DNA of 55,101 nt from Eubacteriales bacterium (GTDB lineage: Bacteria > Bacillota > Clostridia > Oscillospirales > SIG627), in assembly GCA_045658765.1 (NCBI GenBank), contig JAZOVP010000099.1, positions 1-55,101 on the forward strand. Reading direction: 5' to 3'. A program made the translations under genes and the position numbers. This document shows, in pieces, positions 17,150-45,442 of the stretch (its first letter is position 1; every line of letters starts with the position of its first letter). The notes under the pieces are model-generated. The model worked only from the letters and a program-made list of their open reading frames with translations. It searched no databases and was not told the origin of the DNA.

Positions 17150-17220
17150 TTCCTCGCCCCTTCCTTTTTTTATCATACCATAAATCCTCTCCCTCGCGCA
17201 AGAAAAAAGAATTTCGAATT

Positions 17221-17363
17221 TTTTCAAAAAATTTTCCCGAAAAAACCAATTGGCAGATTTTTTCGCCGATAACAATAGTGAAAGAGGCAAAAAACGCTTT
17301 TTTTCAAAAAATTTTCCCGAAAAACCCAATTGGCGCATTTTTTCGCCGATAACAATAGTGAAA
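17221..17363. repeat. Tandem direct duplication: two 63-bp copies with an 80-bp period
   Basis: Copy 1 (17221-17283) and copy 2 (17301-17363) differ at 3 positions. Both read TTTTCAAAAAATTTTCCCGAAAAA(A/C)CCAATTGGC(AG/GC)ATTTTTTCGCCGATAACAATAGTGAAA. Confidence 0.85.
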
Positions 17364-17385: not shown

Positions 17386-18015
17386 ATGAAAAAACTTTGC
17401 AGCTTTGTTTTATTTTTGAGTATGGTTGTTTGTATGCTTCCTTCCTTCCGCCTGATCCTTTCCGATTCAAAAGCAGGTTTCGAGCGTAGCATGGGAGGAA
17501 TCGTAACCGAAGAAACAAAAAAATTCTATCTTGAAAAATTCGGCTCTGCCGAAACTCCGGAAGATCTGACCGACGCACTTCTCGCCTTTGCCCTCGAAAA
17601 TTTTGTGTATGATGACAGCGTGGTTTCTCGCCCTCAAATCGCCGATAATCATCGCTTCATTTTCAAAAATTGCTTCCACGGTGTTTGTATGGATTTTTCC
17701 GCGTTTGTGAAAAGTGCCGTTCAAGTGGTTTCCGATGAAAAGGGCTGGGATCATGTTGGCTGCGTGGTTGTTTTGGGGTATGATTCCGTGTTCAGCGAGG
17801 GGCACGCCACCAATTATATCGTGATCGAAAATCCCGATGGCACTGCCAAGATTTTCGTGCTCGATACCACGTGGGAGGTAGACAGAAACAAAAAAGGCCT
17901 CCCCCTGCAAGGACTGAATTTTTATTATCCCGTTACCAAAGAGGAAAATCGCAAAGAAAAAATCAATGCCCTTTTTGATTCCTATTATCAGTACCGCGTT
18001 TCGGTTGTTGTGTGA
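17386..18015 (+). CDS. Secreted or membrane-anchored transglutaminase-like cysteine protease domain protein
   Basis: N-terminal hydrophobic signal. A Cys-His-Asp arrangement typical of the transglutaminase core: GVCMDFSAF, GHATNY, VLDTTW. Confidence 0.6.
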   Translation: MKKLCSFVLFLSMVVCMLPSFRLILSDSKAGFERSMGGIVTEETKKFYLEKFGSAETPEDLTDALLAFALENFVYDDSVVSRPQIADNHRFIFKNCFHGVCMDFSAFVKSAVQVVSDEKGWDHVGCVVVLGYDSVFSEGHATNYIVIENPDGTAKIFVLDTTWEVDRNKKGLPLQGLNFYYPVTKEENRKEKINALFDSYYQYRVSVVV

Positions 18016-18027
18016 GGAGGTGATTTT

Positions 18028-18339
18028 ATGATGAGTTTGTTTTTTTCCGTTCCGTGTATCATTTTTTTCGCTGCGCGCTTGTTTTTCTTCAAAACCATTG
18101 CGGATATGATTTTCTTTCTTTCCTTTGTTATGGTTGCTTTGGTTGATGTGTTTGGCGGAAACCGCGTTTTGCCGCGTGTTTTTTGCGGATTGAGCTCTGC
18201 CTCAATGTGCGCCCTTTCTTTGTTTTTCTTTTCCCAAAACGCCGTTTTCGATGTGTCGTATCTGATTTTTTCCGCACTTTGGTTTGTGATTCTCCTGGTT
18301 CCTGTTTTTTCGGATTCGCCTTGCGTTTCTTCAGACTAA
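18028..18339 (+). CDS. Small hypothetical membrane protein (about 3 TM)
   Basis: GAGGAGG RBS; strongly hydrophobic 103-aa product. Confidence 0.55.
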   Translation: MMSLFFSVPCIIFFAARLFFFKTIADMIFFLSFVMVALVDVFGGNRVLPRVFCGLSSASMCALSLFFFSQNAVFDVSYLIFSALWFVILLVPVFSDSPCVSSD

Positions 18340-18407: not shown

Positions 18408-20012
18408 ATGAATATTCTTGTTAGTGCTATGAGTCTTTATACCCATCCCGAAGAAAAAGAATACCTTCTTCAAAAAGAGGGAAGAGAAATTCGGGTAAGC
18501 GCCTGCCAAACCAACGAACCCGTTCCCAAAGCACTTTCCCTTTATCTTTCCAAGAAGGGAGAAGCCCTTGATCAAATCGTGCTCCTTTGCACTCCCGCGG
18601 CACTCTCCTTCGATGCAAACGGAAAAAGCGCAGTCGATTATTTCAAAAACGCGATGCGCTCCTCGGGGATCGATGCCGAGATCCACACCCTGCTTCTAAA
18701 TGAAAAAGCCGATTCCGAATCCATCTATTTTACCGGTCTGGAACTCACCACGCTTTGCCGCACCTTTTCCGATCCCAAACTCTATATCGATTCCACCGGC
18801 GGCTTTCGCGATGCGATGATGTTTTTGATTTCCATGATGCAGCTGCTCAAGGAAGAAAAGATTCAAATCGCCGATGTGTTTTATACCGTGCTCGATCGCA
18901 AGGTTGCCTCTCCCCATCCCATTGTAAGCCGAATGGATGCCTATCGGGTATATGATCTCATCTCCGGTTATGAGGATCTTAAAACCTATGGCGATCCCAC
19001 CAAACTCAAAGAATATTTTTCGGCAAAAGATCTTTCCGCTGAAGCCGCAAAAATTCTCGATGCCCTGCAGAGCGTATATCATGAAATGAAGCTTTGCCGC
19101 GTTGCGCAAACAAACTCCGCGCTCCTTCGCCTTTCCCGTCTTCTGGAAGAATATACCCCCGCAGAAAACGCCTTTGATCGCGTGGTGGAACTTGCCGAAA
19201 CCAAATACGGCGGCATCCGCGATGGCTTCACCTATCCCGATTATATCAAGTGGTATTATGCGCATGGCTATGTTCCCCAAACCCTCGCCTTTTTCTATGA
19301 AACTCTTCCCGAAATTCTGGTGAGCGGGAAAATCCTTTATTACGGAAACCACTTAAAAGAAGTTTTGCAAAAGGATTTTGTTTCCAATGTTCCTCATCGC
19401 AAAGAACCATATTCCTTTTTCAATTCCTATTTCAAAAAAACCTTCGGATCCTATCAAGGCAAGGTGAGAAAAGCAAAAAAGGAAGTCCTTTCCTTGGCAA
19501 ATGCCGATTCCATTCCGATCGAGCAGCTTTCCCTTTCCGAATCGGGCAAAAAACTCTATGAAGGGCTTCGCTATTGCCTCCTTGGCAAGCACCATCTGCA
19601 GCTCTTGAAAAAGCCCGAAGCATCTTTCCTTCTCGAAGTGCTCCAAAACGGAAAAATGAAGGGCTTCGAGCGTGCAGAGGATCTTTGGAATTTTGATAAC
19701 ACGAAAAAGATTCTTGAAAGAATTGCGGGAAATGAAAAAATGCTGTGCGCCCTCTATGGTATCGCCCGCGAAGAAAAAGAACTCACCGATCGCGAGCACG
19801 CCCGCCTCATTCTCGCTTCGATCGACGGCAAAAACACCTTCCTCAAAGAAGGGGTCTCCGAAGAGGTGCTGGGAAATCTTCTGGAAAAATATTTCTATCT
19901 CAAGCACCAGCGCGACAGCGTTTTGCACGTTGGCCAAGATAGCGCTTCCCCCAAAACCCTGCGAAAACAGATTGCAGAAGCAATTTCCCTGATGGAGGAG
20001 ATATTAAAATGA
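18408..20012 (+). CDS. CARF (Cas_DxTHG / TM1812-type) plus HEPN protein, Csx1/Csm6-like; putative cyclic-oligoadenylate-activated RNase
   Basis: N-terminus MNILVSAMS..., then LYIDSTGGFRD (aa 128-134, a DxTHGxR-like motif), then VFYTV; this matches the DxTHG CARF pattern. The C-terminus has QRDSVLHVG (R502-X4-H507), an HEPN-type motif at the usual position. AAGGAGGA RBS. Confidence 0.55.
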   Translation: MNILVSAMSLYTHPEEKEYLLQKEGREIRVSACQTNEPVPKALSLYLSKKGEALDQIVLLCTPAALSFDANGKSAVDYFKNAMRSSGIDAEIHTLLLNEKADSESIYFTGLELTTLCRTFSDPKLYIDSTGGFRDAMMFLISMMQLLKEEKIQIADVFYTVLDRKVASPHPIVSRMDAYRVYDLISGYEDLKTYGDPTKLKEYFSAKDLSAEAAKILDALQSVYHEMKLCRVAQTNSALLRLSRLLEEYTPAENAFDRVVELAETKYGGIRDGFTYPDYIKWYYAHGYVPQTLAFFYETLPEILVSGKILYYGNHLKEVLQKDFVSNVPHRKEPYSFFNSYFKKTFGSYQGKVRKAKKEVLSLANADSIPIEQLSLSESGKKLYEGLRYCLLGKHHLQLLKKPEASFLLEVLQNGKMKGFERAEDLWNFDNTKKILERIAGNEKMLCALYGIAREEKELTDREHARLILASIDGKNTFLKEGVSEEVLGNLLEKYFYLKHQRDSVLHVGQDSASPKTLRKQIAEAISLMEEILK

Positions 20013-20629
20013 AAAAATATATTAGCACCATCACCCTTCAAACCAAAGGCGCGATCAAGCACAATTATCGCGATTCCAAAGGAATCGAAACCCCTCGTAT
20101 CCGCACCGCATTCCCCATTCTTCAGCAGATCAGCGATACCGTGGAAAAAGGGGAGGAAATTTCGGTGATCACCATCGTGGTGGGCGGCGAGGAAAACAAT
20201 GAAAATCTTCGCGCCTTCCGCGAGGAATTGGAAGAACTCAAAAATCAAAAGGGCTTCTTCTATACCCAAGAATGTATCCTGAAAGAGGAATCTGAAGAGG
20301 TGGAATCCATTCTTTCGCTCTTTTTGGCAATCACCAAAAAAGTTTCCGATGGCGATCGGCTTTATGCTTGCATCACCTATGGCACCAAGCCCATCGCCAT
20401 GGTTACCAATATGGCGCTCCACTATGCCTATCGCATCAAAAAAGATGTTTTGATCGAAGCGGTCAAATACGGCATGAAAGATTGGAACGCCACGGAAGAG
20501 CCCGTAGGCATTCTCTATGATACCACCGCTCTTTTCTATCTTGATTGTTTGATTGATCGCATTTCCTCCATGAAACTCGAAAACCCCGAAGAAGCGCTTC
20601 GCGCTCTGATTGAAACGGAGGGTGTTTGA
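20009..20629 (+). CDS. Stand-alone CARF-like protein (degenerate DxTHG motif CITYGTKP); candidate ring nuclease or regulatory subunit
   Basis: 206 aa. Same strand-helix pattern as the gene A N-terminus (MKKYISTITL, ISVITIVVGG, LYACITYGTKPIAMV, VKYG). ATGA overlap with gene A. Confidence 0.4.
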   Translation: MKKYISTITLQTKGAIKHNYRDSKGIETPRIRTAFPILQQISDTVEKGEEISVITIVVGGEENNENLRAFREELEELKNQKGFFYTQECILKEESEEVESILSLFLAITKKVSDGDRLYACITYGTKPIAMVTNMALHYAYRIKKDVLIEAVKYGMKDWNATEEPVGILYDTTALFYLDCLIDRISSMKLENPEEALRALIETEGV

Positions 20630-21774
20630 TGAGTTTTTCATCCGAATCCGATTTTGAATGGGAAGATCCCTTGGAGGAAATCTCGGAAGAATTCGAAGAA
20701 ATGTCGGAAGAAACCGAAGAAAAATTGCTTTTTTCCGGCCTTTCTTTCAATTCGAAAGGCAAAAGCGAAATTCAGGAATATATCAAAAAATTGAATTGGC
20801 CGAAACTCAAGGAAGAGCTCAATCTTTGGGGTCGGAAGTTTTCGGAAAGTCAAGGTGCCGAGCGCATCTTTGCCACCGAACGCATCTTAAAGCTTTTGGA
20901 AGACAATATTTTCGAATTCAGTTTTTGCGATAGCGATGCCCTTGCTGAAAATGCCAATTCTATTTTGCACATCAAATTCATCGGTGAACAAGATCATCCG
21001 ATTCGCTTTGTGAAAAGAATCTATCCGAAAAAAGTGTTTTTCGATGCTGTGTTCTATACCCTCGGATATATCACCTCGCCCAATCAATCGCCCGAGCGAG
21101 CCGCGGCGCGCGCGTATCATCACGATCACGAAAAAGGTGCGCAGTATGTTACGTATTTAACTTGGATGCTGGAATATTTCTCCCGCAGAAGAAGGGAAGA
21201 ATTGACCCGTTTGCATAAAAAAAACAAGCAACTTTTCCCCCGAGTTGTTTCGCAAGATGCCTCGTTTGAAGCGCAAAACACCGTCGAAAAGGAAGTGGCG
21301 GAGCGAAGCGAATCTGCCCGCGAAACCGAAGCGATCGTTTCCCTTGCCGCGCTTTGTTTTGATAAAATGCAGCTGGATCAAATGCTTGTGATCGGCGACG
21401 GAGCCATCGGTAAAGTGAAAAAAGTAAGCGGAAAAAACCTGCAGCTTTTCTATTCGTTCCGCCTTGTCAATTTCACCCGTTTTGCCATCGCAAAGGTATC
21501 GGAAAATGAAGATCGCATTCTGATGCGCGCCGCCGAACACGGCTTTTTATCGTTTTCCACCGAAATCACAGAGTTTTGCTATTCGAATCTTGTGAAAGCC
21601 GCTCTTTCTCCGTATATAATCGAAAAAAAGCTTTATTCGTTGGAAGATGGCAAAAAAGTTTTGCAGCAAAGCGCAGTGGCTGATTATCTAAAAATAGATC
21701 CGGGCACCTTAAGCCCGCAATTTCAGGCGGCCGCCCGCTATCTTGCCACCCATTGGAAATACAAACGTCCCTGA
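20629..21774 (+). CDS. Hypothetical protein with an acidic N-terminus; no recognisable domain
   Basis: Its ATG overlaps the upstream TGA by 1 nt, and GGAGG lies 8 nt upstream. The first 30 aa are very acidic (SESDFEWEDPLEEISEEFEEMSEETEE). A possible HTH-like segment near the C-terminus: QSAVADYLKIDPGTLSPQ. Confidence 0.6.
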   Translation: MSFSSESDFEWEDPLEEISEEFEEMSEETEEKLLFSGLSFNSKGKSEIQEYIKKLNWPKLKEELNLWGRKFSESQGAERIFATERILKLLEDNIFEFSFCDSDALAENANSILHIKFIGEQDHPIRFVKRIYPKKVFFDAVFYTLGYITSPNQSPERAAARAYHHDHEKGAQYVTYLTWMLEYFSRRRREELTRLHKKNKQLFPRVVSQDASFEAQNTVEKEVAERSESARETEAIVSLAALCFDKMQLDQMLVIGDGAIGKVKKVSGKNLQLFYSFRLVNFTRFAIAKVSENEDRILMRAAEHGFLSFSTEITEFCYSNLVKAALSPYIIEKKLYSLEDGKKVLQQSAVADYLKIDPGTLSPQFQAAARYLATHWKYKRP

Positions 21775-21789: not shown

Positions 21790-22977
21790 GTGAAATCCGT
21801 TTTACCGTTTGAAACCTTGCCAAAAGGTCTGCCGTTTTGGCGCAATGTTTTATATTGTGCCGTGGATCTTTCCGGAATTCAGAATTTTATCTTTTCTCAA
21901 ATGGATCAGAATACCACCCGCGAAGAGGCAAAATTTCGCTCTGAATTTGTGGAAAGCATCGCGATCAAAGTGAAGGAAAAATTAAAAGAATTCCCCGAAT
22001 ATCTCTTTGGCAATGCTTCGGGAGGGAATTTCACCTGCGCCTTTTCCCCCTCGGTGGATCAGGCGGCGCTCAGGGAAGTTTTGGATCAAATGCAGCGTTC
22101 GCTTTTTGTGGAAACGAGGGGCAATCTCACTTTCTATTATGCACTCCAATCGGCAAAGTGCGTTTCTTCGAAGCGATTCCAAAAAGGTCGCTCCCTCCAT
22201 GTTTCCGCCTTGATCGGAAAATCTTTGGAGGCGGAAAAATATCATTGCAAAAATCTTCTTTCGGCAAAAAATTCCGATGCCGATGGCATGTTTGCGATCC
22301 CCTCCGCGAAAAGCACACCCAAAAAAAGAAGCAGCGATCAAGCGGTGTGCAAATTCGATTTGGATCATCTGGGAGCGTTTTTCCGTGAAATCTCGGAATA
22401 CGATCGCAAAATCTGTGTTGGCCAAGCGCTCGATCAAGCCATCAAAGAAGCCCTGAAAAAAGATCCGCGCATCGAAACGGTTTTTGCAGGGGGCGATGAT
22501 ATCTTTTTCCTTTGCCCGCTCGATTCCGCGCTTTCCGTGATCGCCTCTTTTTACCGTCGCCTTCGAAATTTGTTGAAAAAAAGCGAATTTCTGGCAGAAT
22601 ATGCCGAGCATAATTTTGGCATTTCAGGCGGGGTTTGCGCGCTTCGGAATCAGCTCGATACCATTCCGTTTCTTTCCTATTTCCGCAGTGCGGAAAATGC
22701 CCTTGCCACCGCCAAAACCAAAGGCAAAAAGAATTGTGTGTATTTCAAAATTCCGGGTGGGGAAGAAATGCAAATTTCTTGGAAAAATCTCCTCTTCCTT
22801 GCCGATGCCCTATCGCGGGAAAAAGAAACCGTTTTTTCTCAGTATCGCTTTGGCGGAGCGGATTATATCAATATCCCTCTTCTTTGCGATCAGCTCACTT
22901 TTTGCGAAAAGCAAAAATCAAATTTCTCAAAAAAGGATGTAAAGCGTCTTTATGAAATCAAAAAGATGTCTCTATGA
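21790..22977 (+). CDS. Mini-Cas10-like nucleotide cyclase: Palm1 plus Palm2 with intact GGDD; no HD domain and no full D4 domain
   Basis: AVDLSGIQNFIF (aa 24-35, the Cas10 Palm1 signature), SGGNFTCAF, KFDLDHLGAFF (Palm2 start), FAGGDDIFFL (GGDD at aa 234-237, nt 22489-22500), GISGGVCAL and AENALATAKTKGKKNCVYF. Only 395 aa; GTG start. Confidence 0.6.
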   Translation: MKSVLPFETLPKGLPFWRNVLYCAVDLSGIQNFIFSQMDQNTTREEAKFRSEFVESIAIKVKEKLKEFPEYLFGNASGGNFTCAFSPSVDQAALREVLDQMQRSLFVETRGNLTFYYALQSAKCVSSKRFQKGRSLHVSALIGKSLEAEKYHCKNLLSAKNSDADGMFAIPSAKSTPKKRSSDQAVCKFDLDHLGAFFREISEYDRKICVGQALDQAIKEALKKDPRIETVFAGGDDIFFLCPLDSALSVIASFYRRLRNLLKKSEFLAEYAEHNFGISGGVCALRNQLDTIPFLSYFRSAENALATAKTKGKKNCVYFKIPGGEEMQISWKNLLFLADALSREKETVFSQYRFGGADYINIPLLCDQLTFCEKQKSNFSKKDVKRLYEIKKMSL

Positions 22978-23635
22978 AATTGTTCTCACCCCGCTTGAAA
23001 ACAGCCGTTTCGAGGCGATGCCAAAAGCCGAAGATTTGGAAAAAGCCCTCCCCGAAAGCATTTCCTCGGATTTGTTTGTGGATGGATTTTCCCATAAAAG
23101 AATCGATCTCGGCGTAGGATTTGAAGCAAGTTGCGAGGAGCAATATCATCATCTCAAGCGCCTGAAAGGGGCAAAGATCATTTCCGATCGCGCTCGCAAT
23201 CTTTCGATCGATCAAATGATTTGTCGCCTTGAAGAAGGGGAATTGAAAGTGGAAAACGGTGTGATCGGTTTTTCCGAGGCCTATTCTCGCGCTTTTCGCA
23301 CGATTCGCTTATCGGATTCCGATGCCTTGTTTGGAGTGGAACTAAAAAAAGGCGCCCGCTTTCGCTGTTTTGTGAAAAGCAAAAGCTCCTCCTTCCCCGA
23401 AACGATTCTGATCTCGGGCTCTCCCTTTTTGTTGCAAAAAATATCCCCCCTCTCGCCGCCCGCCTCTCTTGGCGTGTTGCAAAAGAAAGTTTTTCTCTCG
23501 GAAGGAAAAAACTTTGCTTCCAATCCCAAATCCCGATTCAAACTCAGCTTTGACCCCGAAAAAAATCTTCCTGTTTTGTGTGCGGGGAGTGTGCTCGATC
23601 CAAACGAGGTTGAAGGCGTTTTTATTGAAAAATAA
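22952..23635 (+). CDS. Hypothetical protein; possible reduced Csm4/Cmr3 (Cas5-like RAMP) partner of the Cas10-like protein
   Basis: Overlaps the cas10-like gene by 26 nt. The N-terminus CLYEIVLTPLENSRF ... ISSDLFVDGF resembles the Csm4 N-terminal strand plus the S-x-D-x-[IL]-F motif. No clear G-rich loop. Confidence 0.3.
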   Translation: MKSKRCLYEIVLTPLENSRFEAMPKAEDLEKALPESISSDLFVDGFSHKRIDLGVGFEASCEEQYHHLKRLKGAKIISDRARNLSIDQMICRLEEGELKVENGVIGFSEAYSRAFRTIRLSDSDALFGVELKKGARFRCFVKSKSSSFPETILISGSPFLLQKISPLSPPASLGVLQKKVFLSEGKNFASNPKSRFKLSFDPEKNLPVLCAGSVLDPNEVEGVFIEK

Positions 23636-23644
23636 GGAGAATTT

Positions 23645-26600
23645 ATGAAGCCCTATCGAATTTACGACGTAAGAAAAGAAAAACTTTTTCTTCCCTTTGT
23701 TTTTTTGCCGAAATGGGAAAGGGAATACGAGGAATTTCTTTCGGAATACGATCCCGAAACCGGCTTTTTGATGACCAAAACCAAAACAAGAAACAGACAA
23801 AAAAACGAGGAACAGGAAGTGTATTTTCTGTATTTGGGTGCCAAGCATTACCGCCTCGATTTTTTTCAACAAAGATATAGAGATGTGGCATTCGCCATAA
23901 GAAGTTGCGATGGAATTTCCCAAAAAAACACCATCACCATCGCGGCCGAAGCCATCCGCATCATCGGAATTCCCAAGGATTTCTTTTTTATGAGCTCCGA
24001 TTGGCAAAGCTTTTGGGAAAATCATAAGGGATCCGATCTTTTCCCCACCTATGTGCCGAATTTTAGCACCGAAACGATCAAAACCACCTCCGAAGATCCT
24101 GCCGAACTGATTGCTTCCGCCCAGAAAATGTCTCATTTTTTGGAAAACAGTCCGTTTTTCGGAGGATCGTCAATGGCAACTGCCCCCTCGGTCTTTTTCC
24201 GATCCCGCGCTCTGGTCGATGTTTTTCTGGAAGAAAAGAAATCGCGGAAAGAAATCGAGGTCGAACCCGATCCTCTCTGGCAGTTCCTTTTGGAAACCAG
24301 CGAAAAGAAGAAAGAATTCGAATCCAATTTCTTGATCGAATGGCAGTATCTTAGTTTTGATCGCAAAGGAAAGGTCGATGATGCGCACCTTTGCGAATTC
24401 ACCATTGCCGCGCCCGATCAAACCATCCGTCAAAACGAAGCGCGCTTCGAAGCATTCAGAAAAGAAATCGGCATCGCAAAAGAGGATTCTGATTCCTCCA
24501 TCGAAACCTTGCGCGAGAGCTATTTGAATAAACTCGGCTCGGGCACCATGATCGAAATTCCCCTCAATCGTGCCCCCGATAAAAGCGGCAAGCAGCCGAT
24601 GCTGTTTGGCAGCGTGGTGCGCTTTGAATTTCCCGGCATCACCGCCGCAGAAGGCGAAGAAGTAAAACTCCCCGAGGATTACTTTGAAAAAAACGAGCAT
24701 TTTTCCATTCCTTGGAAGATGATTGTTTCTTTCAAAGACGATTCCGATGCCACTTTAAAAGAAATTTCTGCCTCCGGCACGCTCTGTGAAAGGGTTTCCA
24801 CCGATTATCAAAATTATAAATCCGCTCTGGGCGTGATGGTCAATAGAATCGCCGATCTTAGCTGGAAATCCGCGGAAGATATTATCATCCGCCAAAATCT
24901 TTCTCCGTTTGAAGTAAAGCCGGAAGAAGATTTTGTTTCCAAGCGCCTCAATCCCAATCAAAAAGAAGCCATTTCCCTTGCGCTTTCCGCACCCGATTTT
25001 TGCCTCATCCAAGGGCCTCCCGGCTCGGGCAAAACCACCATCATCACGGAAATGGTGCGCAAATTTGTCAATCGCGGCGAGCGCGTTCTCGTGTGCTCGA
25101 AGGGCAATCTTGCAGTGGATAATGTTTTGGAAAAATGGATCGAGGAAAATAAAATGCGCCCCGATTCCCATCTTTGTGTGCGCCTCGGTCAGAATTTCAA
25201 ACTCCCGTTTTTAAAGGATTATACCCCCGCAAAAGTAACCGAACGCGTGCAAGAAAAGGCATACAACAAAACCCGCGAAGAAAGAGATCAGCTTTCCCAA
25301 AAAGTGGAAGACAAAATCCGTTTTTTGGAAGAAAACCGCGAAAAGATCGAAGCGTTTTCCGAGTTTTGCACGTTTGTTTTCGATCTTACCGAAACCCTCC
25401 TTCTTCTCTTGCAGTCGTATCAAAATGCACCTTCCTATCTGAATTGGATGAGCTCCGTTCTCTCCGAAAAAACCTCTCTTGCATCCTCCGCTTATTCGAT
25501 CGTATACAATCAGGTTTTCCTGCCCGTTTGCCGAGCCCTGTTTTCTTCTGAGGTTCCGAGCGAAAAAACCGTAAAAGAATTCGATGAAGGGCTTGATCGG
25601 GTGTTTCAAATCGCGCAAACGCTCAAAGCCCCCGCCGAGTATGATTTCATCGCGCGCCTTTTCGCAAAAAATTGGATTGCTCTTTGGAATCAAAACGAAG
25701 CGGCACTGCTTTCAAAAATTGGCATTGTTTTGGCGAAAAACGAAAAAGAAACCGAATGGAAGAGCATCTCAAATCCCGCCCTTTTGTTGCTTTCGCTTCC
25801 CGATTTCGGCAAAACTCCCGATCCTTTTGCCGTGCTCCGCTTTGCGCGCACCCTTCCCGAAGAAATCAGCCGGTTTTCCGATCGTGAAATCCTCAAAATC
25901 GAGCGCATCCGCACTGTTTTAAATGATTGGCTTCAGGAACTCGGAAGCGGTGTTTCCACCCCCTTGGAAAGAACCGTTGTGCTCGATAGCATCCCCGTGA
26001 TCGGCTCCACTTGCATGGGAATTATGTCCGATAATGATTTTAAAGGCGTAAAATACGATGTTGTGATTGTGGATGAAGCCGGCCAAATCCCGATTTTTGA
26101 TTTGATGGTACCCCTCATCAAAGCCAAAAAAGTGGTTCTCATCGGCGATCATCTTCAGCTTCCTCCGATGAACGAAGATGAGTTTTTAGATTATCTTGAC
26201 AAAACGGAATATTTAGAAACCGAAGAAGGGGAGAAAAAAGAAATTCTTCGGAAAATCGGCGAGTGGTATAATGTGAGTTTATTCGAAAAACTCTATCGAA
26301 CCGCCTCTTTGAATCCTGCCAAAAAAATGCTCGATACCCAGTATCGTATGCATCCCGATATTTGCCAATTTATTTCCAAATCCTTTTATAACGGCGAATA
26401 CAAAGCGCACGATTCCACCAAAAACCGTATTCTTCGGATTGCGGGATTCGATCAGCCCATCTATTTTTACGATACCTGCACCCTCCCCGAAAAAGCGCGT
26501 GCAGAAACCTATCATAATCCCGGCTATTCCAATACCGTCGAAGCAGAAAAGATCTCCGATATTCTCGTCAAAATTCTCCTTGCCATTCGAGAGGGGAATT

Positions 26601-27082
26601 ATGAAGGCGAAAATCTTGTGCTTCGCGATAAAGCCACCGATGAAATCATCGGGTATGATATCGGCGTGATTTCGGGCTATAAAAAGCAGGTCAAAGCCAT
26701 CTCGAATCTCACTCAGAAAAAGCTCGAAGCGTATATGTCTCCCGAAGAAGCCGATCTTCATATGAGCCGCTTTATGATCAGCTCCGTCGATTCCTTCCAA
26801 GGAAGAGACAATCAGATCATCCTCTTCTCAATGACCCGAAGCAACCCCGAAGGCAAGATCGGCTTTTTAAAAGATGTGCGCCGTTTGAATGTGGCAATGA
26901 CCCGCGCCAAATCTCTTCTGATTATGGTGGGCGATTCCGCCACCCTCACCGCCTGCCCCGCATCTTGTGCCCATGATGCCTCCCAAAAGGTGGCCGATCT
27001 TTATCGCGCCCTTATTTTGCACTGCAACCAAAAGCATTATTATCATCCGATGAAAGGAGAAGAATCCGATGGCCAAACCTGA
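23645..27082 (+). CDS. SF1 helicase (Upf1/DNA2-like, AAA_11/AAA_12 type) with an uncharacterised ~440-aa N-terminal region
   Basis: LNPNQKEAI, GPPGSGKTT (aa 457-465), VIVDEAGQ (aa ~807-814), GDHLQLPP, QYRMHPDI, VDSFQGRDNQ and LNVAMTRAKS. A ~290-aa helical insertion separates motifs Ia and II. AAGGAGA RBS. Confidence 0.8.
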   Translation: MKPYRIYDVRKEKLFLPFVFLPKWEREYEEFLSEYDPETGFLMTKTKTRNRQKNEEQEVYFLYLGAKHYRLDFFQQRYRDVAFAIRSCDGISQKNTITIAAEAIRIIGIPKDFFFMSSDWQSFWENHKGSDLFPTYVPNFSTETIKTTSEDPAELIASAQKMSHFLENSPFFGGSSMATAPSVFFRSRALVDVFLEEKKSRKEIEVEPDPLWQFLLETSEKKKEFESNFLIEWQYLSFDRKGKVDDAHLCEFTIAAPDQTIRQNEARFEAFRKEIGIAKEDSDSSIETLRESYLNKLGSGTMIEIPLNRAPDKSGKQPMLFGSVVRFEFPGITAAEGEEVKLPEDYFEKNEHFSIPWKMIVSFKDDSDATLKEISASGTLCERVSTDYQNYKSALGVMVNRIADLSWKSAEDIIIRQNLSPFEVKPEEDFVSKRLNPNQKEAISLALSAPDFCLIQGPPGSGKTTIITEMVRKFVNRGERVLVCSKGNLAVDNVLEKWIEENKMRPDSHLCVRLGQNFKLPFLKDYTPAKVTERVQEKAYNKTREERDQLSQKVEDKIRFLEENREKIEAFSEFCTFVFDLTETLLLLLQSYQNAPSYLNWMSSVLSEKTSLASSAYSIVYNQVFLPVCRALFSSEVPSEKTVKEFDEGLDRVFQIAQTLKAPAEYDFIARLFAKNWIALWNQNEAALLSKIGIVLAKNEKETEWKSISNPALLLLSLPDFGKTPDPFAVLRFARTLPEEISRFSDREILKIERIRTVLNDWLQELGSGVSTPLERTVVLDSIPVIGSTCMGIMSDNDFKGVKYDVVIVDEAGQIPIFDLMVPLIKAKKVVLIGDHLQLPPMNEDEFLDYLDKTEYLETEEGEKKEILRKIGEWYNVSLFEKLYRTASLNPAKKMLDTQYRMHPDICQFISKSFYNGEYKAHDSTKNRILRIAGFDQPIYFYDTCTLPEKARAETYHNPGYSNTVEAEKISDILVKILLAIREGNYEGENLVLRDKATDEIIGYDIGVISGYKKQVKAISNLTQKKLEAYMSPEEADLHMSRFMISSVDSFQGRDNQIILFSMTRSNPEGKIGFLKDVRRLNVAMTRAKSLLIMVGDSATLTACPASCAHDASQKVADLYRALILHCNQKHYYHPMKGEESDGQT

Positions 27083-29000
27083 TACCGAACTAGCCCTCAC
27101 CGCGCTAAAATACGATCTTATCGATGAAAACACGATTCGCTTTGTTCGCATCGGATATCCTCTTCTCAGCGTGCGCGCAGATATTATGACCTATCAGGAT
27201 AGCGCTCGTTTTTCTCTGATAAAAAAATATCTCCACCGTTTGGTTACGGGCGATCAGCCCGATGCCAAAGAGCCGGTTTCTTATGTGAAAGATCGCGTGG
27301 AAGCGGCTTCGCTTCTCGGTTTGGATCAAGAATTGTTTGATGTGGCAAGCTATTATTATGATGAGCTCATCATATCCGGCAAAATCCACGATTCCTCCCG
27401 AGGTGCGCTTGCCGGCGCCGCCCCCGAGGGCGATCCCGCGCTTTCTCGCATCCGCTCCTCCCGCCGCATCGAAACCCGCCTTGTGGTCGATCCTTTCAGC
27501 GCCGAAATCTATGGCAGCAAGATATCCGAACTCCATGCAAGAACTCTGGAAGAGATCGATCGGGCCCATGGCAACGATATTTGCCTTCCCTATCTTCCCG
27601 ATTTCACTTCAAAGCCCGAAGCGCTGGAAGAGTTGATCAATCAAAAAAATTTCTCCTTCGAAGATTGCACCGAAGAATATATGACCGCGCGTTTGATGGA
27701 GCAGAATATGCCCCACGGCACCACGGGTATCGAAATCGTTTCCGAAGAAGAGTGCGATCCCGTTGAGGTTTTCTATCTGCCGTATTATCTTGCCCTCAAG
27801 CGCACAGAAAACGGCGAAGAATTTTTCCTCCATAGCCATTCCAGCACAAAACCCATCGATCTTTTTCCCATCATGGATTCTGATCATGAGTTTTTCCGTC
27901 GCCTTATGAGAGGGTATTTTGAAACCGAGCACCACGGCATTCTCAAATATGTGCTCACCGATCTGGTTCAAATCCCGCTCACCGAAAAAGGAAACAAACT
28001 TGCAGAAAATGTTTCGCTGGATGAAAACGGAAATTATAAGGCATTGCTTTCCGATTTTCAGCTTGCTCTTCTTTGTATGGAAAAAGAAAACGAAGCGCAG
28101 AATTTGATTCACCTCGTTTCCAAAGGTGTTGGCGTGATCCCTTCGCGCGAATCGGGTCGCCTTGTTCATTTTGTTCTTTCCGAGGAGCAAAAAGAGATCT
28201 GTCAAAAGATTGTGGAAAATCCGTCTGAGCGCTATGCCATCGTTCTTCCCATTTTAGAAAAAGCGGCCGAAGAAGGGAATCCCGATGCCGTTTATCATCT
28301 GGCAAATTGCCTCTTCTCGGGCCGCGGCACGAAAGAAAATAAAGAAAAAGCATATTCTCTCTATCAAAAAAATGCCGAAAATGGTCATGCTTGGTCTCTT
28401 TTCCAGCAGTCGGTTTGCCTTCTGTTTGGGGAAGGGGTGGAAATCGATCTTGAAAAAGCGCAGGATCCGCTCGAGAAAATCCCCGCCGATGCTCCTTGCT
28501 ATGGCCTCGCGCTTCATAATCTTGGCGTACTGTATACCAAAAGAGCCAATAAAATCGAAAAAGAAGATCCCGAAAAAGCCAAAGAATTCTATCAAATTGC
28601 CGTCAAAAAACTCCTCCTTGCCTGCAATCAGCGTTTCGTGAATTCCTTCACCTCGGTTTCGGCCGCCGCCTTGTATCACGAGGGTAAGGGCGTGGAAAAA
28701 AATATGGAAACGGCTGTTCAGTATTATGAAGATGGCGCAAAGCGCGGCCATATCTTTGCGCAATATATACTCGGTGCTTGCTGTGTGGCAGGGATGGGAA
28801 TCCAAAAAGATCTTGTGCGTGCAAAAAAATTGCTTTCTGCTGCCACTCGCGCCATTCCCGAGGATAGAATTTTCTTTTTCGGCTCCAAGCCCTTCATTTC
28901 CTATCCGCATCTTTGCATTTCAGAAAAGCAAATTGAAGAGCGCAAAGAAACCATAGAAAAATATCAAAAGAAAGCAAAAGACCTCTTATCCAAACTCTAA
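27069..29000 (+). CDS. Sel1-repeat (TPR-like) protein with an uncharacterised ~400-aa N-terminal region
   Basis: Overlaps the helicase gene by 14 nt. The C-terminal ~220 aa has several Sel1-type repeats (AAEEGNPDAVYHLANCLFSGRGTKENKEKAYSLYQKNAENGH, YYEDGAKRGHIFAQYILGACCVAGMGIQKDLVRAKKLL). Confidence 0.7.
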   Translation: MAKPDTELALTALKYDLIDENTIRFVRIGYPLLSVRADIMTYQDSARFSLIKKYLHRLVTGDQPDAKEPVSYVKDRVEAASLLGLDQELFDVASYYYDELIISGKIHDSSRGALAGAAPEGDPALSRIRSSRRIETRLVVDPFSAEIYGSKISELHARTLEEIDRAHGNDICLPYLPDFTSKPEALEELINQKNFSFEDCTEEYMTARLMEQNMPHGTTGIEIVSEEECDPVEVFYLPYYLALKRTENGEEFFLHSHSSTKPIDLFPIMDSDHEFFRRLMRGYFETEHHGILKYVLTDLVQIPLTEKGNKLAENVSLDENGNYKALLSDFQLALLCMEKENEAQNLIHLVSKGVGVIPSRESGRLVHFVLSEEQKEICQKIVENPSERYAIVLPILEKAAEEGNPDAVYHLANCLFSGRGTKENKEKAYSLYQKNAENGHAWSLFQQSVCLLFGEGVEIDLEKAQDPLEKIPADAPCYGLALHNLGVLYTKRANKIEKEDPEKAKEFYQIAVKKLLLACNQRFVNSFTSVSAAALYHEGKGVEKNMETAVQYYEDGAKRGHIFAQYILGACCVAGMGIQKDLVRAKKLLSAATRAIPEDRIFFFGSKPFISYPHLCISEKQIEERKETIEKYQKKAKDLLSKL

Positions 29001-29031: not shown

Positions 29032-29403
29032 ATGGGAATTTTTATCAATTTATCCAATCATCCCAGTAGGGAATGGGGCGAAAATCAGCTTGCCGCCGCC
29101 CGAAAAATCGGCAAGATCACAGATATCCCCTTTCCTCCCATCGATCCGCAAAGCACCCCCGAGCAAATCCAAAAAATCGCCAAATCTCTTTTCTCCTTCA
29201 TTCGTGCGCTGGGCAAACCCGTGGTGATGATTCAGGGCGAATTTACCTTCACCTATCAAATGGTTCGTTTGCTTCAGGAGGCAGGCATTCGCGCTGTTTC
29301 CTGTGCCACCAGGCGCGTGTGCGAAGAATTTGTAAACCAAAAGGGCGAAACCGTGAAAACCTCTTATTATCGTTTCGAGGGTTTTCGCGATTACTACCTC
29401 TAA
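29032..29403 (+). CDS. Small alpha/beta protein, possibly Csx20-like CRISPR-associated accessory family
   Basis: 123 aa: FINLSNHPSREW...QL, VVMIQGEFTFTYQMVRLLQEAGIRAVSCATRR and a C-terminal YRFEGFRDY. This matches my recollection of Csx20-type proteins. AAAGGAGAA RBS. Confidence 0.35.
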   Translation: MGIFINLSNHPSREWGENQLAAARKIGKITDIPFPPIDPQSTPEQIQKIAKSLFSFIRALGKPVVMIQGEFTFTYQMVRLLQEAGIRAVSCATRRVCEEFVNQKGETVKTSYYRFEGFRDYYL

Positions 29404-29466: not shown

Positions 29467-29495
29467 TTGCAAAAAAATTCTAATAATGGTAGAAT
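29467..29495 (+). promoter_or_regulatory. Sigma-A type promoter of the HTH-serine dehydratase gene
   Basis: TTGCAA, 17 nt, TAGAAT with a TGn extension. It places the transcript start after the ORF-track ATG at 29486. Confidence 0.55.
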
Positions 29496-29518
29496 TTTAT
29501 CAGAAGAAGGAAAGGAGA

Positions 29519-30952
29519 ATGAATGTGGATTTTTCCGAAAAGATTCGCTTTTTAAGAAAAAAGAATAAGCTCAGTCAGGCAGAGCTCGGGAAAATGGTGG
29601 GTGTTTCCAATCGCGCCGTTTCCAAGTGGGAAAACGGGGAAAGCTTCCCCTCCACCGATACCCTTCTTTCCGTGGCAACCGCCTTTGGGGTAACCCTTGA
29701 TTTCTTTTTGAAAAACGATGCCAAGGATTCTGCCAAAAAAATTGTGGAAGCGGGAATGGAATCGCTCCGTGAACTTTATAAAATCGGCATCGGCCCCTCG
29801 AGTTCGCATACCATGGGCCCCGCCCGAGCGGCAAATCTGTTTCGCAATCGCTTCCCCGAAGCCACCCGATTTGAAGCGGTGCTTTGCGGCTCCCTTGCAA
29901 AAATGGGCAAAGCCCATCGCGCCGATGTTTGCCTCAAAGAATCCTTTGCTCCGGCCGAATGCGAGGTAATTTTCGATATTAAAATGCGAAAGCTTTCCCA
30001 TCCAAACACGTTCTTTTTATCGGCATATCGCGGCGCGGAAAAGATCGGGTCTTGGGAAGTGGCAAGCGTTGGCGGCGGCAGTATCGAAGTGAAAGGCGAG
30101 AGGGAATATCATCCCCGCCGCATCTATCCCCATAATTCCTTCACCGAAATTGCCGAATTCTGCCGAAAAAATAAAATCCGCCTCTGGCAATATGTGGAAC
30201 ACTATGAAGGCAAAGAAATCTGGGATTATCTTCGCGAAATTTGGCAGGCAATGCTCTCTTCGATCGAAGAAGGTCTTTTAGCCGAAGGCGAACTCTATGG
30301 CGGGCTTGGGGTAAAGCGCAAGGCAAAATATCTTTATTCCCAGCACCATATCGATGAAAATTCCGAAACCCGCGAAAATCGCCTTGTTTGCTCTTTTGCG
30401 TTTGCCGTGAGCGAGCAAAACGCATCGGGTGGCAAGGTTGTTACCGCGCCCACTTGCGGTTCGAGCGGAATTTTGCCCGCAGTCCTCAAATATGTGAGCG
30501 AAAAAAGGGGCTTTGAAGAAATTCAAATCCTTCGCGCCCTTGCCACCGCAGGGCTGATCGGAAATCTGATCAAAACCAATGCCTCCATCAGCGGGGCAGA
30601 ATGTGGGTGTCAGGCGGAAGTGGGTTCTGCTTGTGCAATGGCAGCGGCGGGCTTGGGCGAAATTTATTCCATGTCCGTTTCCCAAATCGAATACGCCGCG
30701 GAAGTGGCGCTCGAGCACCATCTCGGGCTCACGTGCGATCCCATTCGCGGGCTTGTGCAAATCCCTTGCATCGAGCGAAATGCCGTGGCAGCAATGCGCG
30801 CCATCCATGCAATCAATCTTGCCAATTTCCTGGCAGATTCCAGAAAAATATCGTTTGATACCGTGGTAAAAACTATGTATGAAACCGGAAAAGATCTTCC
30901 TCGCCGCTACCGTGAAACAGGCGAGGGCGGACTTGCAAAACTCTATCGGTAA
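29519..30952 (+). CDS. XRE-type HTH domain fused to an iron-sulfur L-serine ammonia-lyase (SdaA-like, single chain)
   Basis: N-terminus IRFLRKKNKLSQAELGKMVGVSNRAVSKWENGES (HTH_3). Then IGIGPSSSHTMGP, APTCGSSGILPAV and SGAECGCQAEVGSACAMAA (4Fe-4S Cys ligands). Start set at ATG 29519. Confidence 0.75.
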   Translation: MNVDFSEKIRFLRKKNKLSQAELGKMVGVSNRAVSKWENGESFPSTDTLLSVATAFGVTLDFFLKNDAKDSAKKIVEAGMESLRELYKIGIGPSSSHTMGPARAANLFRNRFPEATRFEAVLCGSLAKMGKAHRADVCLKESFAPAECEVIFDIKMRKLSHPNTFFLSAYRGAEKIGSWEVASVGGGSIEVKGEREYHPRRIYPHNSFTEIAEFCRKNKIRLWQYVEHYEGKEIWDYLREIWQAMLSSIEEGLLAEGELYGGLGVKRKAKYLYSQHHIDENSETRENRLVCSFAFAVSEQNASGGKVVTAPTCGSSGILPAVLKYVSEKRGFEEIQILRALATAGLIGNLIKTNASISGAECGCQAEVGSACAMAAAGLGEIYSMSVSQIEYAAEVALEHHLGLTCDPIRGLVQIPCIERNAVAAMRAIHAINLANFLADSRKISFDTVVKTMYETGKDLPRRYRETGEGGLAKLYR

Positions 30953-44150: not shown

Positions 44151-44299
44151 ACTCACTCAAACCAATCCAAACTGATCAGGCCAAACGGAGCCGGGTTACG
44201 ATTTGTAACAGTGGATTTTGTATCCGCGGGACAGAAAACTGTTTCCACGGGTATTTTTTTATACATTTTTTTCTTTCTTCCGCATATCATTCCATAGAA
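44151..44299 (+). promoter_or_regulatory. Long structured 5' leader of the CDF transporter; candidate metal-responsive riboswitch or attenuator, class unassigned
   Basis: Three consecutive hairpins: GTTAC-gattt-GTAAC, GTGGAT-tttgt-ATCCGC and GGGACAG-aaaa-CTGTTTC. They are followed by CCACGGGTATTTTTTTATACATTTTTTTC. Confidence 0.3.
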
Positions 44300-44311
44300 T
44301 TGGAGGAATCT

Positions 44312-45442
44312 ATGAAAAGCGAAATTCAAACCGAAAAGCGGATTTTCGTTGGCAAAACCGCGGCCACCACTGGCATTGTTTTCAATCTTCTTCTCTCTTT
44401 GGGAAAAATCATCGCAGGCAATCTTTTCGGTGCCGTTTGTGTGGTTGCCGATGGCGTGAATAATCTTGCCGATGCCGCCTCTTCGTGCGCCATGCTCTTT
44501 GGTTTTGTGCTTTCCGAAAAGCCCGCCGATAAAGAGCATCCCTATGGCCACGCCCGCTTTGAGCATCTCTCTTCCCTTGTGGTATCCATTCTTATTTTTG
44601 TGGTGGGTTTTGAATTTTTCAAAACCTCGGTCATCAAAATCTTTCGCCCCGCTGCCATCGAAGCCACGCCCGTTTTGTTTGGCGTTTTGATCGCATCGAT
44701 TTTGGTGAAAAGCGCACTCGCAGTGTATTTTGATGCCCGCGGCAAAAAAATCTCATCGCAAAGTCTTGCCGCCGCTTCCATCGATAGCCGAAACGATGCC
44801 GTGATGACCACCCTCATCCTTGTTTGTGCCGTGGTGGAAAAAATCTGGAATTTCCGTCTTGATGGATTCGCGGGTGCCGCCCTTTCCGTGTTCATTTTCT
44901 GGAGCGGCATCGGAATCGCAGGCAAAACCATTTCGGCCCTTCTCGGAAGGGGAGCCGATCCCGCCTTGAAGGAAAAAATGATTTGCAAAATCAAATCCGC
45001 GCCCGAGGTGATCGGGTGCCATGATCTGATGCTCCATGATTACGGCCCCGGCAAGCATTTTGCCAGTATCCATGTGGAAATGGATAAAAACACCGATCCC
45101 ATGCTCTGCCATGCCCTCATCGATCAAATCGAGCGTGAATGCAAAGAAGAATTCGGGGTGCACCTTGTGATCCATTATGATCCCGTCGAGCTCGACAATC
45201 CCGAAACCGTTCGCTTGAAAAATTTGGTGCAGGCACTGCTTTCCGTGCGCGATGCCCGCCTTCTCATCCACGATTTTCGGCTTGTTTCGGAAGAAGGGGA
45301 GAGCGTTTTATATTTCGATCTCGAATTCCCGAGCGAACTTTTAAATCAAAAAGATACCATCGAATTGAATCTGAAAGAAGCCCTTTTCAAAATCGAAGCC
45401 AAAGAATATCGCCTCAAGATCACGCGCGATCTCGAAAGCTGA
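44312..45442 (+). CDS. Cation diffusion facilitator (CDF) family metal efflux transporter
   Basis: TM domain with an ADGVNNLADAASS-type metal site and HxxxD-like motifs, plus a C-terminal cytoplasmic domain. Start reset from TTG 44300 to ATG 44312, with a GGAGG RBS. Confidence 0.85.
   Translation: MKSEIQTEKRIFVGKTAATTGIVFNLLLSLGKIIAGNLFGAVCVVADGVNNLADAASSCAMLFGFVLSEKPADKEHPYGHARFEHLSSLVVSILIFVVGFEFFKTSVIKIFRPAAIEATPVLFGVLIASILVKSALAVYFDARGKKISSQSLAAASIDSRNDAVMTTLILVCAVVEKIWNFRLDGFAGAALSVFIFWSGIGIAGKTISALLGRGADPALKEKMICKIKSAPEVIGCHDLMLHDYGPGKHFASIHVEMDKNTDPMLCHALIDQIERECKEEFGVHLVIHYDPVELDNPETVRLKNLVQALLSVRDARLLIHDFRLVSEEGESVLYFDLEFPSELLNQKDTIELNLKEALFKIEAKEYRLKITRDLES

Follow-up and report, generated by a model that had tools for sequence, protein, structure and literature searches.

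An array-less, type III-derived Cas10 cassette with a MkoA-like helicase pair as its putative guide-free sensor

Core genes of the cassette

The window analysed here is the whole 55,101-nucleotide (nt) stretch of contig JAZOVP010000099.1 (positions 1 to 55,101, forward strand) from an Eubacteriales bacterium assembly (GCA_045658765.1). It contains a cassette of ten genes, G1 to G10, at ~17.2-29.4 kb, all on the plus strand and with housekeeping genes on both sides. Four adjacent genes of the cassette encode a mini-Cas10 (G6), a putative divergent Csm4/Cas5-like protein (G7), a Upf1/MkoA-like helicase of superfamily 1B (SF1B; G8) and a partner protein (G9). On balance, the cassette is probably a type III-derived, array-less defence system that signals by cyclic oligoadenylate (cOA), in which the helicase and its partner would be obligate subunits of the sensor/synthase module.

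The mini-Cas10 G6 (21790..22977; 395 amino acids, aa) matches Pfam Cas10-Cmr2_palm2 (3.4e-15), TIGR02578 Csm1 (3.5e-17) and the PADLOC Cas10/Cas10a models, the PADLOC Cas10 matches falling in two stretches. It also matches both Palm regions of Csm1 structures. The protein corresponds to a Csm1-like two-Palm core without the HD nuclease and without the C-terminal D4 domain. The type III large subunit, with its GGDD cyclase Palm, is present in the cassette in this shortened form. The motifs D-x-SGIQ-x-FI and GGDD (aa 234-237) are invariant in the family, and G6 is predicted to be a cOA synthase. Against the Pfam mCpol model it scores 18.4 bits (0.003), which is under the cut-off of 26.4.

The gene for G7 (22952..23635; 227 aa) shares 26 nt with the Cas10 gene, and its place is always between the Cas10 and helicase genes. 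Its Csm4/Cas5-like character was missed by an initial annotation of the window, which had been made from the sequence without database searches. G7 is read as a divergent Csm4-like protein, with moderate confidence, because its homologues in four distant loci match only Csm4 models (4.7e-7 over nearly the full length in L088, 1.4e-4 in L093, 9.6e-5 in L007 and 4.7e-3 in L006). In genuine type III complexes, Csm4 holds the 5' handle of the CRISPR RNA (crRNA).

The helicase G8 (23645..27082; 1145 aa) and the partner G9 (27069..29000; 643 aa) are encoded by two open reading frames that overlap by 14 nt, as first annotated, and the Shine-Dalgarno sequence AAAGGAG lies 9 nt 5' of the second ATG. 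The helicase core is complete, as had also been stated. Its six motifs are GPPGSGKTT (aa 457-465), VIVDEAGQ (807-814), GDHLQLPP (834-841), QYRMHPDI (899-906), VDSFQGRD (1048-1055) and NVAMTRAK (1082-1089), and all six are invariant in an alignment of 26 homologues. G8 is assigned to the Upf1/DNA2-like SF1B helicases because it matches Pfam AAA_11 (3.9e-42) and AAA_12 (2.2e-51) and the NCBIfam IGHMBP2 family, and because its best solved relatives are IGHMBP2, DNA2, Upf1, SETX and Sen1 (PDB profile E 1e-64 to 1e-44). The two RecA-like domains with superfamily 1 motifs that typify this group are present. The 1B barrel on a stalk and the 1C insertion are present as well, with moderate support, the Foldseek TM-scores being low. 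There is no kinase match to Pfam in the 1145 aa.

The initial annotation described the first 440 aa of the helicase as novel. This holds for part of the region. In an AlphaFold2 model of aa 1-432 (17 family sequences, mean pLDDT 80.8), the N-terminus consists of a confident alpha/beta domain, ND1 (aa 1-130; 23645..24034), a low-confidence linker of variable length (aa 131-205; 24035-24259) and a helix/beta-barrel/helix unit (aa ~206-432). ND1 and the linker are indeed without an assignment, with ND1 returning nothing in Pfam and PDB searches. In contrast, aa ~206-440 (24260..24964) look like the stalk helices and 1B-type beta-barrel of Upf1 and Sen1 in the model. Foldseek against the PDB aligns aa ~206-432 with the SETX, Sen1 and Upf1 cores (E 7.6e-4 to 1e-2; 7.6e-4 to 7e-3 for 8ftm, 8ram, 2gk6 and 2xzo), and also returns small beta-barrel proteins for the N-terminal model. 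The full-length family profile aligns to IGHMBP2 from ~aa 384, within the stalk helix. About half of the 440-aa N-terminus is therefore typical of the helicase family. A PDB sequence search with the N-terminal profile gave no meaningful match. A hidden Markov model (HMM) of aa 1-432 retrieves, among the retrieved helicases, only the 32 family clusters P0001-P0032.

The large insertion noted between motifs Ia and II is real. It spans aa ~501-790 (25145..26014) in RecA1, at the position of domain 1C. AAA_11 stretches over aa 435-842 for just 252 model positions, and across the insertion, which is the least conserved segment of the helicase, the alignment to IGHMBP2 is interrupted. The C-terminal tail (aa ~1101-1145; 26945-27082) contains conserved Cys and His residues (CPASCAHD...HCNQKHYYH), with H1110 invariant and C1127 nearly invariant in the family, and could be a small metal-binding element.

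G9 contains a conserved domain, G9N (aa 1-395; 27069..28253), and a Sel1-like repeat region (aa 396-643; 28254..29000). The C-terminal third of the protein consists of tandem ~36-aa Sel1 repeats (Pfam Sel1 1.7e-19), as annotated. The repeats are dispensable. The C-terminus is absent in about one third of the homologues, contains Sel1 repeats in most others and is unrecognised in a few, and the Sel1 region of other loci is absent, replaced or encoded by a separate gene. The conserved part is G9N, which is always N-terminal in homologues of 380-1243 aa. The G9N family is very rare, with 47 clusters at 50% identity among 1.84 billion representatives.

The AlphaFold2 model of G9N is confident (pLDDT 86.3, pTM 0.73); like that of the helicase N-terminus, it was built on a shallow alignment (14-17 sequences). 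A winged helix-turn-helix is found at aa ~45-118 and the remainder is an alpha/beta region. In Foldseek searches of the PDB and BFVD, only this ~70-residue winged helix is recognised and the whole-domain fold has no match; the G9N sequence has no match in Pfam or among PDB sequences. G9N is thus a confidently modelled fold without a solved relative. The description of the first ~400 aa as unknown sequence stands for the domain as a whole but not for the winged helix, nor for the remote relatives that resemble the MkoB N-terminus. No catalytic set is apparent among the invariant residues, which are mainly Gly, Pro and Leu; G9N is therefore more likely to serve in binding or as an adaptor than to be an enzyme.

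No nuclease domain is recognised in G8 or G9 by Pfam, PADLOC and NCBIfam scans, with Foldseek added for G9N. For the helicase, this agrees with the annotation, which had reported no nuclease motif. CARF, SAVED and other known cOA-binding domains are likewise not recognised in either protein (Pfam, PADLOC, NCBIfam, Foldseek). Pfam searches at E up to 10 with ND1, the helicase insertion, G9N, G7 and the accessory proteins G1, G2 and G5 gave no match.

Three further genes of the cassette encode proteins related to cOA signalling. G3 (18408..20012) is a Csx1-type CARF-HEPN protein (PADLOC CARF2--CARF_HEPN 1.2e-36, Csx1/Csm6 6.6e-25) in which the HEPN motif R502-x4-H507 is invariant across relatives, and it is predicted to be a cOA-activated RNase effector. 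G4 (20009..20629; 206 aa) is a CARF-only protein (PADLOC CARF2--CARF 2.6e-52, with a weak match to TIGR02221) that could serve as a regulator binding the signal or as a ring nuclease. G10 (29032..29403) is a Csx20 protein of the MJ1673 family (PADLOC Csx20 1.1e-31) and the predicted off-switch of the system. Csx20 is a biochemically confirmed ring nuclease specific for cyclic tetraadenylate (cA4) (PMC12409355).

Conservation across loci and relation to known systems

Three kinds of query led to related loci: helicase homologues, a distant homologue of the partner, and the mini-Cas10 alignment, with which metagenomes were scanned. Mini-Cas10, G7, helicase and G9N occur in the same order in all 14 complete loci, which represent perhaps nine or ten distinct lineages, and in two truncated loci, with unrelated flanking genes. 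The overlap between the helicase and partner genes recurs (-14, -14, -14, -11, -8, -4, -4, -4 and -1 nt). The four core proteins co-diverge, with correlations of 0.85-0.96 between their pairwise identity matrices (Mantel p ~2e-4). Because the order of the four genes is the same in all loci and the flanks and effectors differ, the pair is not a chance neighbour, and it is very probably an integral part of the Cas10 system. The suggestion in the initial annotation that the position of the pair inside a Cas10/CARF operon is meaningful is thereby borne out. By its pattern of conservation, the helicase/partner pair falls within the conserved sensor/synthase module and not among the swappable effectors.

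The genes around the core are variable. A CARF protein is found in 13 of the 14 loci. In the window-type loci, a Csx1-like CARF-HEPN protein, a CARF protein and Csx20 are present. In L088-L090, the effector and the ring nuclease are joined in one chain, a Csx1-Csx20 fusion, directly after the four-gene core (550 aa, at 16045-17697 in L088; PADLOC PDLC01843 1.2e-120). In L091 and L093, there is a divergently transcribed Csm6. L006 (9350-14076) encodes a CARF-HEPN-type protein, an AAA+ ATPase with IetA/TRIP13-like matches and a separate 208-aa Sel1 protein. L007 (318-3352 and 13997-19818) encodes a TerY-P-like set of kinase, VWA and PP2C proteins, a second VWA protein, a zinc-ribbon protein, a 1188-aa AAA+-CARF fusion and a second Sel1 protein of 1123 aa. 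The shortest cassettes (L130, L091 and L093) have just five or six genes and are suited to transfer for phage-challenge tests.

In L098, L100, L104 and L114, Csx20 is accompanied by other small Cas10 proteins (480-494 aa), and the helicase is absent. These loci seem to form a compact type III variant of their own, and two of them (L100 and L104) have long CRISPR arrays.

The guide machinery of type III systems was not found in the cassettes. A simple array finder detects no CRISPR-like array in 15 loci (~330 kb; the window and 14 relatives), and the same finder detects arrays in ordinary type III control loci from the same scan. TRF and Rfam likewise give no array in the 55-kb window. The absence of an array applies to contigs of 10-55 kb, and guides supplied in trans lie outside this scope. 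Among the ten window genes, neither Cas7 nor Cas6 is recognised by Pfam, PADLOC and NCBIfam, and no Cas11 is recognised either. In the other loci, where some neighbours were scanned directly and the rest were read from precomputed Pfam labels, no Cas7 is recognised and Cas11 appears only weakly, at the G7 homologue of L091. The Cas7 backbone (Csm3/Csm5, Cmr4) with Cas11 that typifies type III complexes is thus not found, and the compact cassettes L130, L091 and L093 have no unassigned gene of Cas7 or Cas11 size.

A tblastn search with G9N against plasmid and phage collections and a search with mini-Cas10 against IMG/VR gave no match. These collections therefore give no sign of a plasmid- or phage-borne cassette. 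Among sequencing runs, a single gut metagenome was returned, and it contained only 5% of the query words.

The best defence-family match of the helicase is MkoA (PADLOC PDLC03920, 6e-115). Type I Mokosh, attributed to Millman et al. 2022, reportedly pairs MkoA, a Ser/Thr kinase-helicase, with MkoB, a phospholipase D (PLD) nuclease. The cassette shares with it a MkoA-like helicase, and G9N takes the position of MkoB and is remotely homologous to helicase-adjacent proteins and probably to MkoB-like ones. It differs in that the kinase part of the MkoA fusion and the PLD nuclease are missing, in that the output is a Cas10 cyclase, and in the family-specific ND1 of the helicase. Of MkoB, only the non-catalytic N-terminal part appears to be related to the cassette partner. 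Despite the strong HMM match, an assignment of the helicase to Mokosh MkoA itself was rejected, since kinase and PLD nuclease are both absent.

The nearest helicases outside the family (P0033 and P0036) are found in loci with a MkoA N-terminal fragment, a separate Ser/Thr kinase and a MkoB-like protein, and HMM searches of these loci find no Cas10, G7 or G9N. The kinase-bearing relatives of the helicase fall in other clades. PADLOC MkoB matches three or four of the 43 members of the partner family, with a best value of 6e-7.

In at least seven loci from GTDB species representatives, the gene directly after a related helicase encodes a G9N-like protein of 419-495 aa, and neither Cas10 nor G7 occurs within 10 kb. 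These loci (L009-L014 and L016, at ~8.3-13.4 kb in each) belong to Amycolatopsis, two Streptomyces, Thermogemmatispora, Actinoallomurus, Dactylosporangium and Flavobacterium, that is, to cultured Actinomycetota and Thermogemmatispora and to one Flavobacterium metagenome-assembled genome (MAG). The initial annotation missed that distant pairs of helicase and partner exist without Cas10 in kinase-linked Mokosh-like loci. A separate and widespread helicase-Sel1 system, which would have marked the juxtaposition in the window as accidental, was not found for the ND1-bearing family. In the same GTDB species-representative scan, made with the helicase alignment and its generic helicase motifs, no close family member is present among the matches listed.

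Profile comparisons link the partners of these Cas10-less helicases to G9N to different degrees. With hhalign, the Cas10-type G9N alignment matches the helicase-adjacent proteins of the Cas10-less loci with 97% probability (E 8e-11). L128 and L129 encode a kinase, a helicase and a MkoB-like protein weakly related to G9N, and have no Cas10. A broader 43-sequence G9N profile matches the two MkoB-like proteins of L128 and L129 with 80% probability. The Cas10-type G9N alignment gives 3.4% against the same two proteins, which is not significant, and phmmer and hmmsearch find no match between them and the G9 family. The MkoB link of G9N is therefore probable, not firm.

In Thermogemmatispora, the gene directly 5' of the helicase has a Ser/Thr kinase domain; among the Cas10-less pairs, the upstream kinase was looked at in L011 only. 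The G9N-like proteins next to the Cas10-less helicases have no PLD HxKxxxxD motif, and G9 has no PLD match in Pfam. In L016, the open reading frame after the pair has the HxKxxxxD motif without a PDB relative, so that a PLD nuclease is indicated there by the motif alone. L009-L014, L016, L128 and L129 appear to be related to type I Mokosh, in a split form or without PLD. Because remote homologues of G9N adjoin helicases without Cas10, the helicase and G9N are best understood as an old two-gene unit common to Mokosh-like systems.

Among type III systems, the cassette is most similar to III-A and III-D. Like these, it has a Csm1-like GGDD Cas10, a neighbour that is probably Csm4/Cas5-like, a Csx1/Csm6 CARF-HEPN protein and Csx20, and the full chain of signal generator, receptor and off-switch is present. 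Unlike these, the Cas10 is cut to ~395 aa and lacks both HD and D4, and no Cas7, Cas6, adaptation genes or array were found in 14 loci, with one weak Cas11 match at the L091 G7 homologue. A Upf1-like helicase and G9N stand in place of the crRNA-binding subunits.

A minimal-Cas10 (mCpol) and CARF-HEPN operon was reportedly described by Burroughs in 2015. mCpol and Panoptes systems combine a small Cas10-related cyclase with CARF-type receptors and have no CRISPR arrays (PMC8730458, PMC13577387), and the cassette is similar in these respects. It differs in that mCpol has one Palm and dimerises, whereas G6 has two Palms per chain and a Csm4-like partner. Panoptes has no helicase and no G9N, and its 2TM-beta or CARF-TM effectors are held off by the signal; those of the cassette are Csx1/Csm6 RNases. 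The combination of a single-Palm mCpol with a 2TM-beta or CARF-TM effector is not found in the cassette.

As described by Bell et al. 2024 (PMC11090510), CnuH of the CoCoNuT systems is a Upf1-like superfamily 1 helicase that has a stalk, an OB/1B barrel and, after Walker A, a large helical insertion, and it is often linked to TerY-P triads (kinase, VWA, PP2C) and to HEPN or CARF proteins. The cassette resembles type II and III CoCoNuTs in its helicase architecture and in the TerY-P-like set of the variant L007. It differs in that it has no CnuE, no coiled-coil nuclease tandem and no McrBC-type CnuB/CnuC GTPase-nuclease pair, AAA_5/McrB and McrC matches being absent among the operon genes (Pfam, PADLOC, NCBIfam). 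CoCoNuTs, in turn, have no Cas10 cyclase.

HRAMP and ARAMP are built from RAMP (Cas7/Cas5-like) proteins, and we know of no helicase or cOA pathway described for them. They are type III-derived systems that have lost the array and typically occur with HNH or PD-(D/E)xK nucleases (PMC12669027). The cassette shares their type III descent and the absence of an array, but its Cas7 proteins are lost and Cas10 signalling is retained. The searchable literature (open-access papers and bioRxiv, with most subscription journals outside it, so that an earlier description is possible) contains no description of the four-gene set. The component classes are all known and the wiring is new.

A proposed guide-free mechanism and its alternatives

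We consider it somewhat more probable than not that the MkoA-like helicase pair licenses cOA synthesis by Cas10-Csm4 without a guide RNA, a proposal that draws on gene content and on analogy with Mokosh. In this mechanism, mini-Cas10, G7, helicase and G9 would form a complex, as their invariant order, overlapping genes and co-divergence suggest. The ATP-driven 5'-3' helicase and its winged-helix partner would survey RNA or single-stranded DNA and, by analogy with Mokosh, recognise without a guide some nucleic acid or nucleoprotein state associated with phage. The Sel1 repeats would provide, in many lineages, an extra protein-binding surface. Recognition would switch on the Cas10 Palms, which would then make cOA. 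The signal would most likely be cA4, because the catalytic motifs are intact, the receptors are of the Csx1 type and Csx20 is cA4-specific. It would activate the Csx1-like CARF-HEPN RNase G3 and lead to growth arrest or abortive infection, and Csx20, perhaps together with the CARF-only protein G4, would degrade the signal and reset the system.

In defence systems, sensor and signal generator tend to stay together and effectors are exchanged. The helicase pair is placed on the sensor side because it stays with the cyclase while the effectors vary, and because neither protein has a cOA receptor or nuclease domain. The Cas10-Csm4 unit would otherwise be sensorless because the crRNA-Cas7 filament is missing. 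The initial annotation had left open whether the pair was the infection sensor or a second effector arm; for these same reasons, the former fits better.

Several observations weigh against this mechanism. The Csm4 matches of G7 are weak to moderate and occur in distant family members only. The window G7 has no direct family match, its profile finds no Csm4 among PDB sequences, and the L091 homologue matches a Cas11 model (1.4e-3) and not Csm4. The structural assignments are based on alignments of 14-17 sequences and on low Foldseek TM-scores. Every cassette locus comes from a metagenome or a MAG, and in L127 no CARF protein is recognised. Linked genes that are simply inherited together would be expected to co-diverge as well, and the correlation is no proof of physical interaction.

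The alternative that survives best, although it is unlikely, is continued RNA guidance. A crRNA or another small RNA, supplied in trans, would serve Cas10 and the Csm4-like protein, with helicase and G9 as accessory proteins that might unwind the target or clear it away, or take over from the Cas7 backbone as an RNA-holding platform. Helicases are accessory in known CRISPR systems, such as DinG in type IV-A and Cas3 in type I. The resemblance of G7 to Csm4, the subunit that binds the crRNA 5' tag, counts in favour of a guide and against the mechanism proposed above, and so does the limited extent of the flanks inspected, only 10-55 kb per locus. Many type III-B, -C, -F and -G loci without their own arrays borrow crRNAs (PMC12669027). 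Against a guide in trans stand the ~330 kb without arrays, with positive controls, and the 14 loci in which no Cas7 or Cas6 is recognised (Cas11 being limited to the one weak L091 match), with compact cassettes that have no spare genes. No type III complex is known to function if the Cas7 filament that holds the guide is missing.

Still less likely is that the helicase and G9 form a second effector or downstream arm whose targets would be nucleic acid of the phage or the host, or host proteins reached via Sel1. Type III loci often have several effectors, Upf1-like helicases can strip proteins from RNA, and Sel1/TPR scaffolds occur in the effector partners of type III-E, all of which would be in keeping with such an arm. 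Neither protein, however, has a cOA-binding, nuclease or protease domain, and the pair is never swapped or lost, unlike genuine effectors. A second effector would also leave Cas10-Csm4 without any sensor.

A guard logic of the Panoptes kind is very improbable. In such a system, the mini-Cas10 would signal constitutively and the response would fire when a phage sponge or ring nuclease removes the signal, with the helicase as a separate regulator. To our knowledge, Csx1/Csm6 HEPN RNases are switched on by cOA in all studied cases. The precedent is that stand-alone mini Cas10-like mCpol cyclases use guard logic in Panoptes types I and II (PMC12657218, PMC12657230, PMC13577387). The cyclase of the cassette is instead a two-Palm Csm1-like protein with a Csm4-like partner, the cassette has no 2TM-beta or CARF-TM effector, and its own Csx20 would trigger a guard system.

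Two independent systems side by side in a defence island (a Mokosh-like pair and an mCpol/CARF abortive-infection module) are the least probable explanation, close to negligible, for although minimal Cas10 and CARF-HEPN operons exist alone (PMC8730458) and distant helicase and G9N-like pairs without Cas10 occur in at least seven GTDB loci and in L128 and L129, all 14 complete loci have the same order with overlapping or abutting genes and co-diverging proteins, the helicase clade has lost the Mokosh kinase and PLD partner and so has no effector on its own, and the helicase N-terminal region, including ND1, is found only in the Cas10-linked family.

A wider form of the licensing mechanism is possible, although it falls short of probable. 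The cassette would represent guide-free, 'innate' type III signalling, in which a Cas10-Cas5 cyclase is switched on by a MkoA-like helicase and a winged-helix partner resembling the MkoB N-terminus. It would be either a reduced type III descendant or a living model of a stage between the minimal Cas10 abortive-infection module and RNA-guided class 1 effectors. If the licensing mechanism is correct, a guide RNA is not the only means of controlling Cas10 cyclases, and two defence families that have been regarded as distinct, Mokosh and type III CRISPR, are linked. It would also bear on the origin of class 1 CRISPR effectors from a Cas10/CARF abortive-infection module. We know of no trigger described for Mokosh, and cOA synthesis would be a tractable reporter of the activation of Mokosh-type helicases.

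Accessory genes, upstream element and flanking sequence

The remaining cassette genes have no family assignment in the libraries scanned. G1 (17386..18015; 209 aa) has an N-terminal signal or transmembrane segment and no Pfam, NCBIfam or PADLOC match. Read by eye, it contains a Cys...His...Asp pattern resembling that of transglutaminase-fold peptidases. It is kept in the window-type cassettes and in L127, and is not present in the minimal versions. G2 (18028..18339; 103 aa) is an extremely hydrophobic small membrane protein without a family match. It is an accessory gene that accompanies the window-type cassettes and is likewise missing from the minimal versions. G5 (20626..21774; 382 aa) is found in window-type loci only and has no family match. 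Its N-terminus is very acidic, its C-terminal segment resembles a helix-turn-helix (HTH) by eye, and it may be a regulator of the cassette.

Just 5' of G1 on the same strand, there is a tandem duplicated element at 17219..17363, made up of two 65-nt copies that are 95% identical and have a spacing of 80 nt. Its 24-nt core, TTTTCGCCGATAACAATAGTGAAA, has exactly two copies in the window, with none expected. In the closest relative, L001, the core is likewise doubled 5' of the first gene (433-456 and 524-547). The element is not CRISPR-like and may be a promoter or operator of the cassette.

The upstream flank of the cassette contains genes for alanine racemase, a class IV aminotransferase and an ArsC/Spx-like protein. 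The downstream flank contains an HTH-serine dehydratase fusion, an AI-2E transporter and Tex. Fe-hydrogenase and Rex genes are also among the neighbours and, together with a NiCo riboswitch, hint at a gut or anaerobic member of the Bacillota. The fusion (29486-30952) lies directly 3' of the cassette and joins an XRE-type HTH (HTH_3, 7.5e-16) to the beta and alpha domains of L-serine dehydratase. This architecture is unusual, and the gene does not accompany the cassette in other loci. Further downstream, a NiCo (nickel/cobalt) riboswitch (Rfam RF02683, 50.6 bits) is located at 44162-44236, 5' of an open reading frame at 44300-45442.

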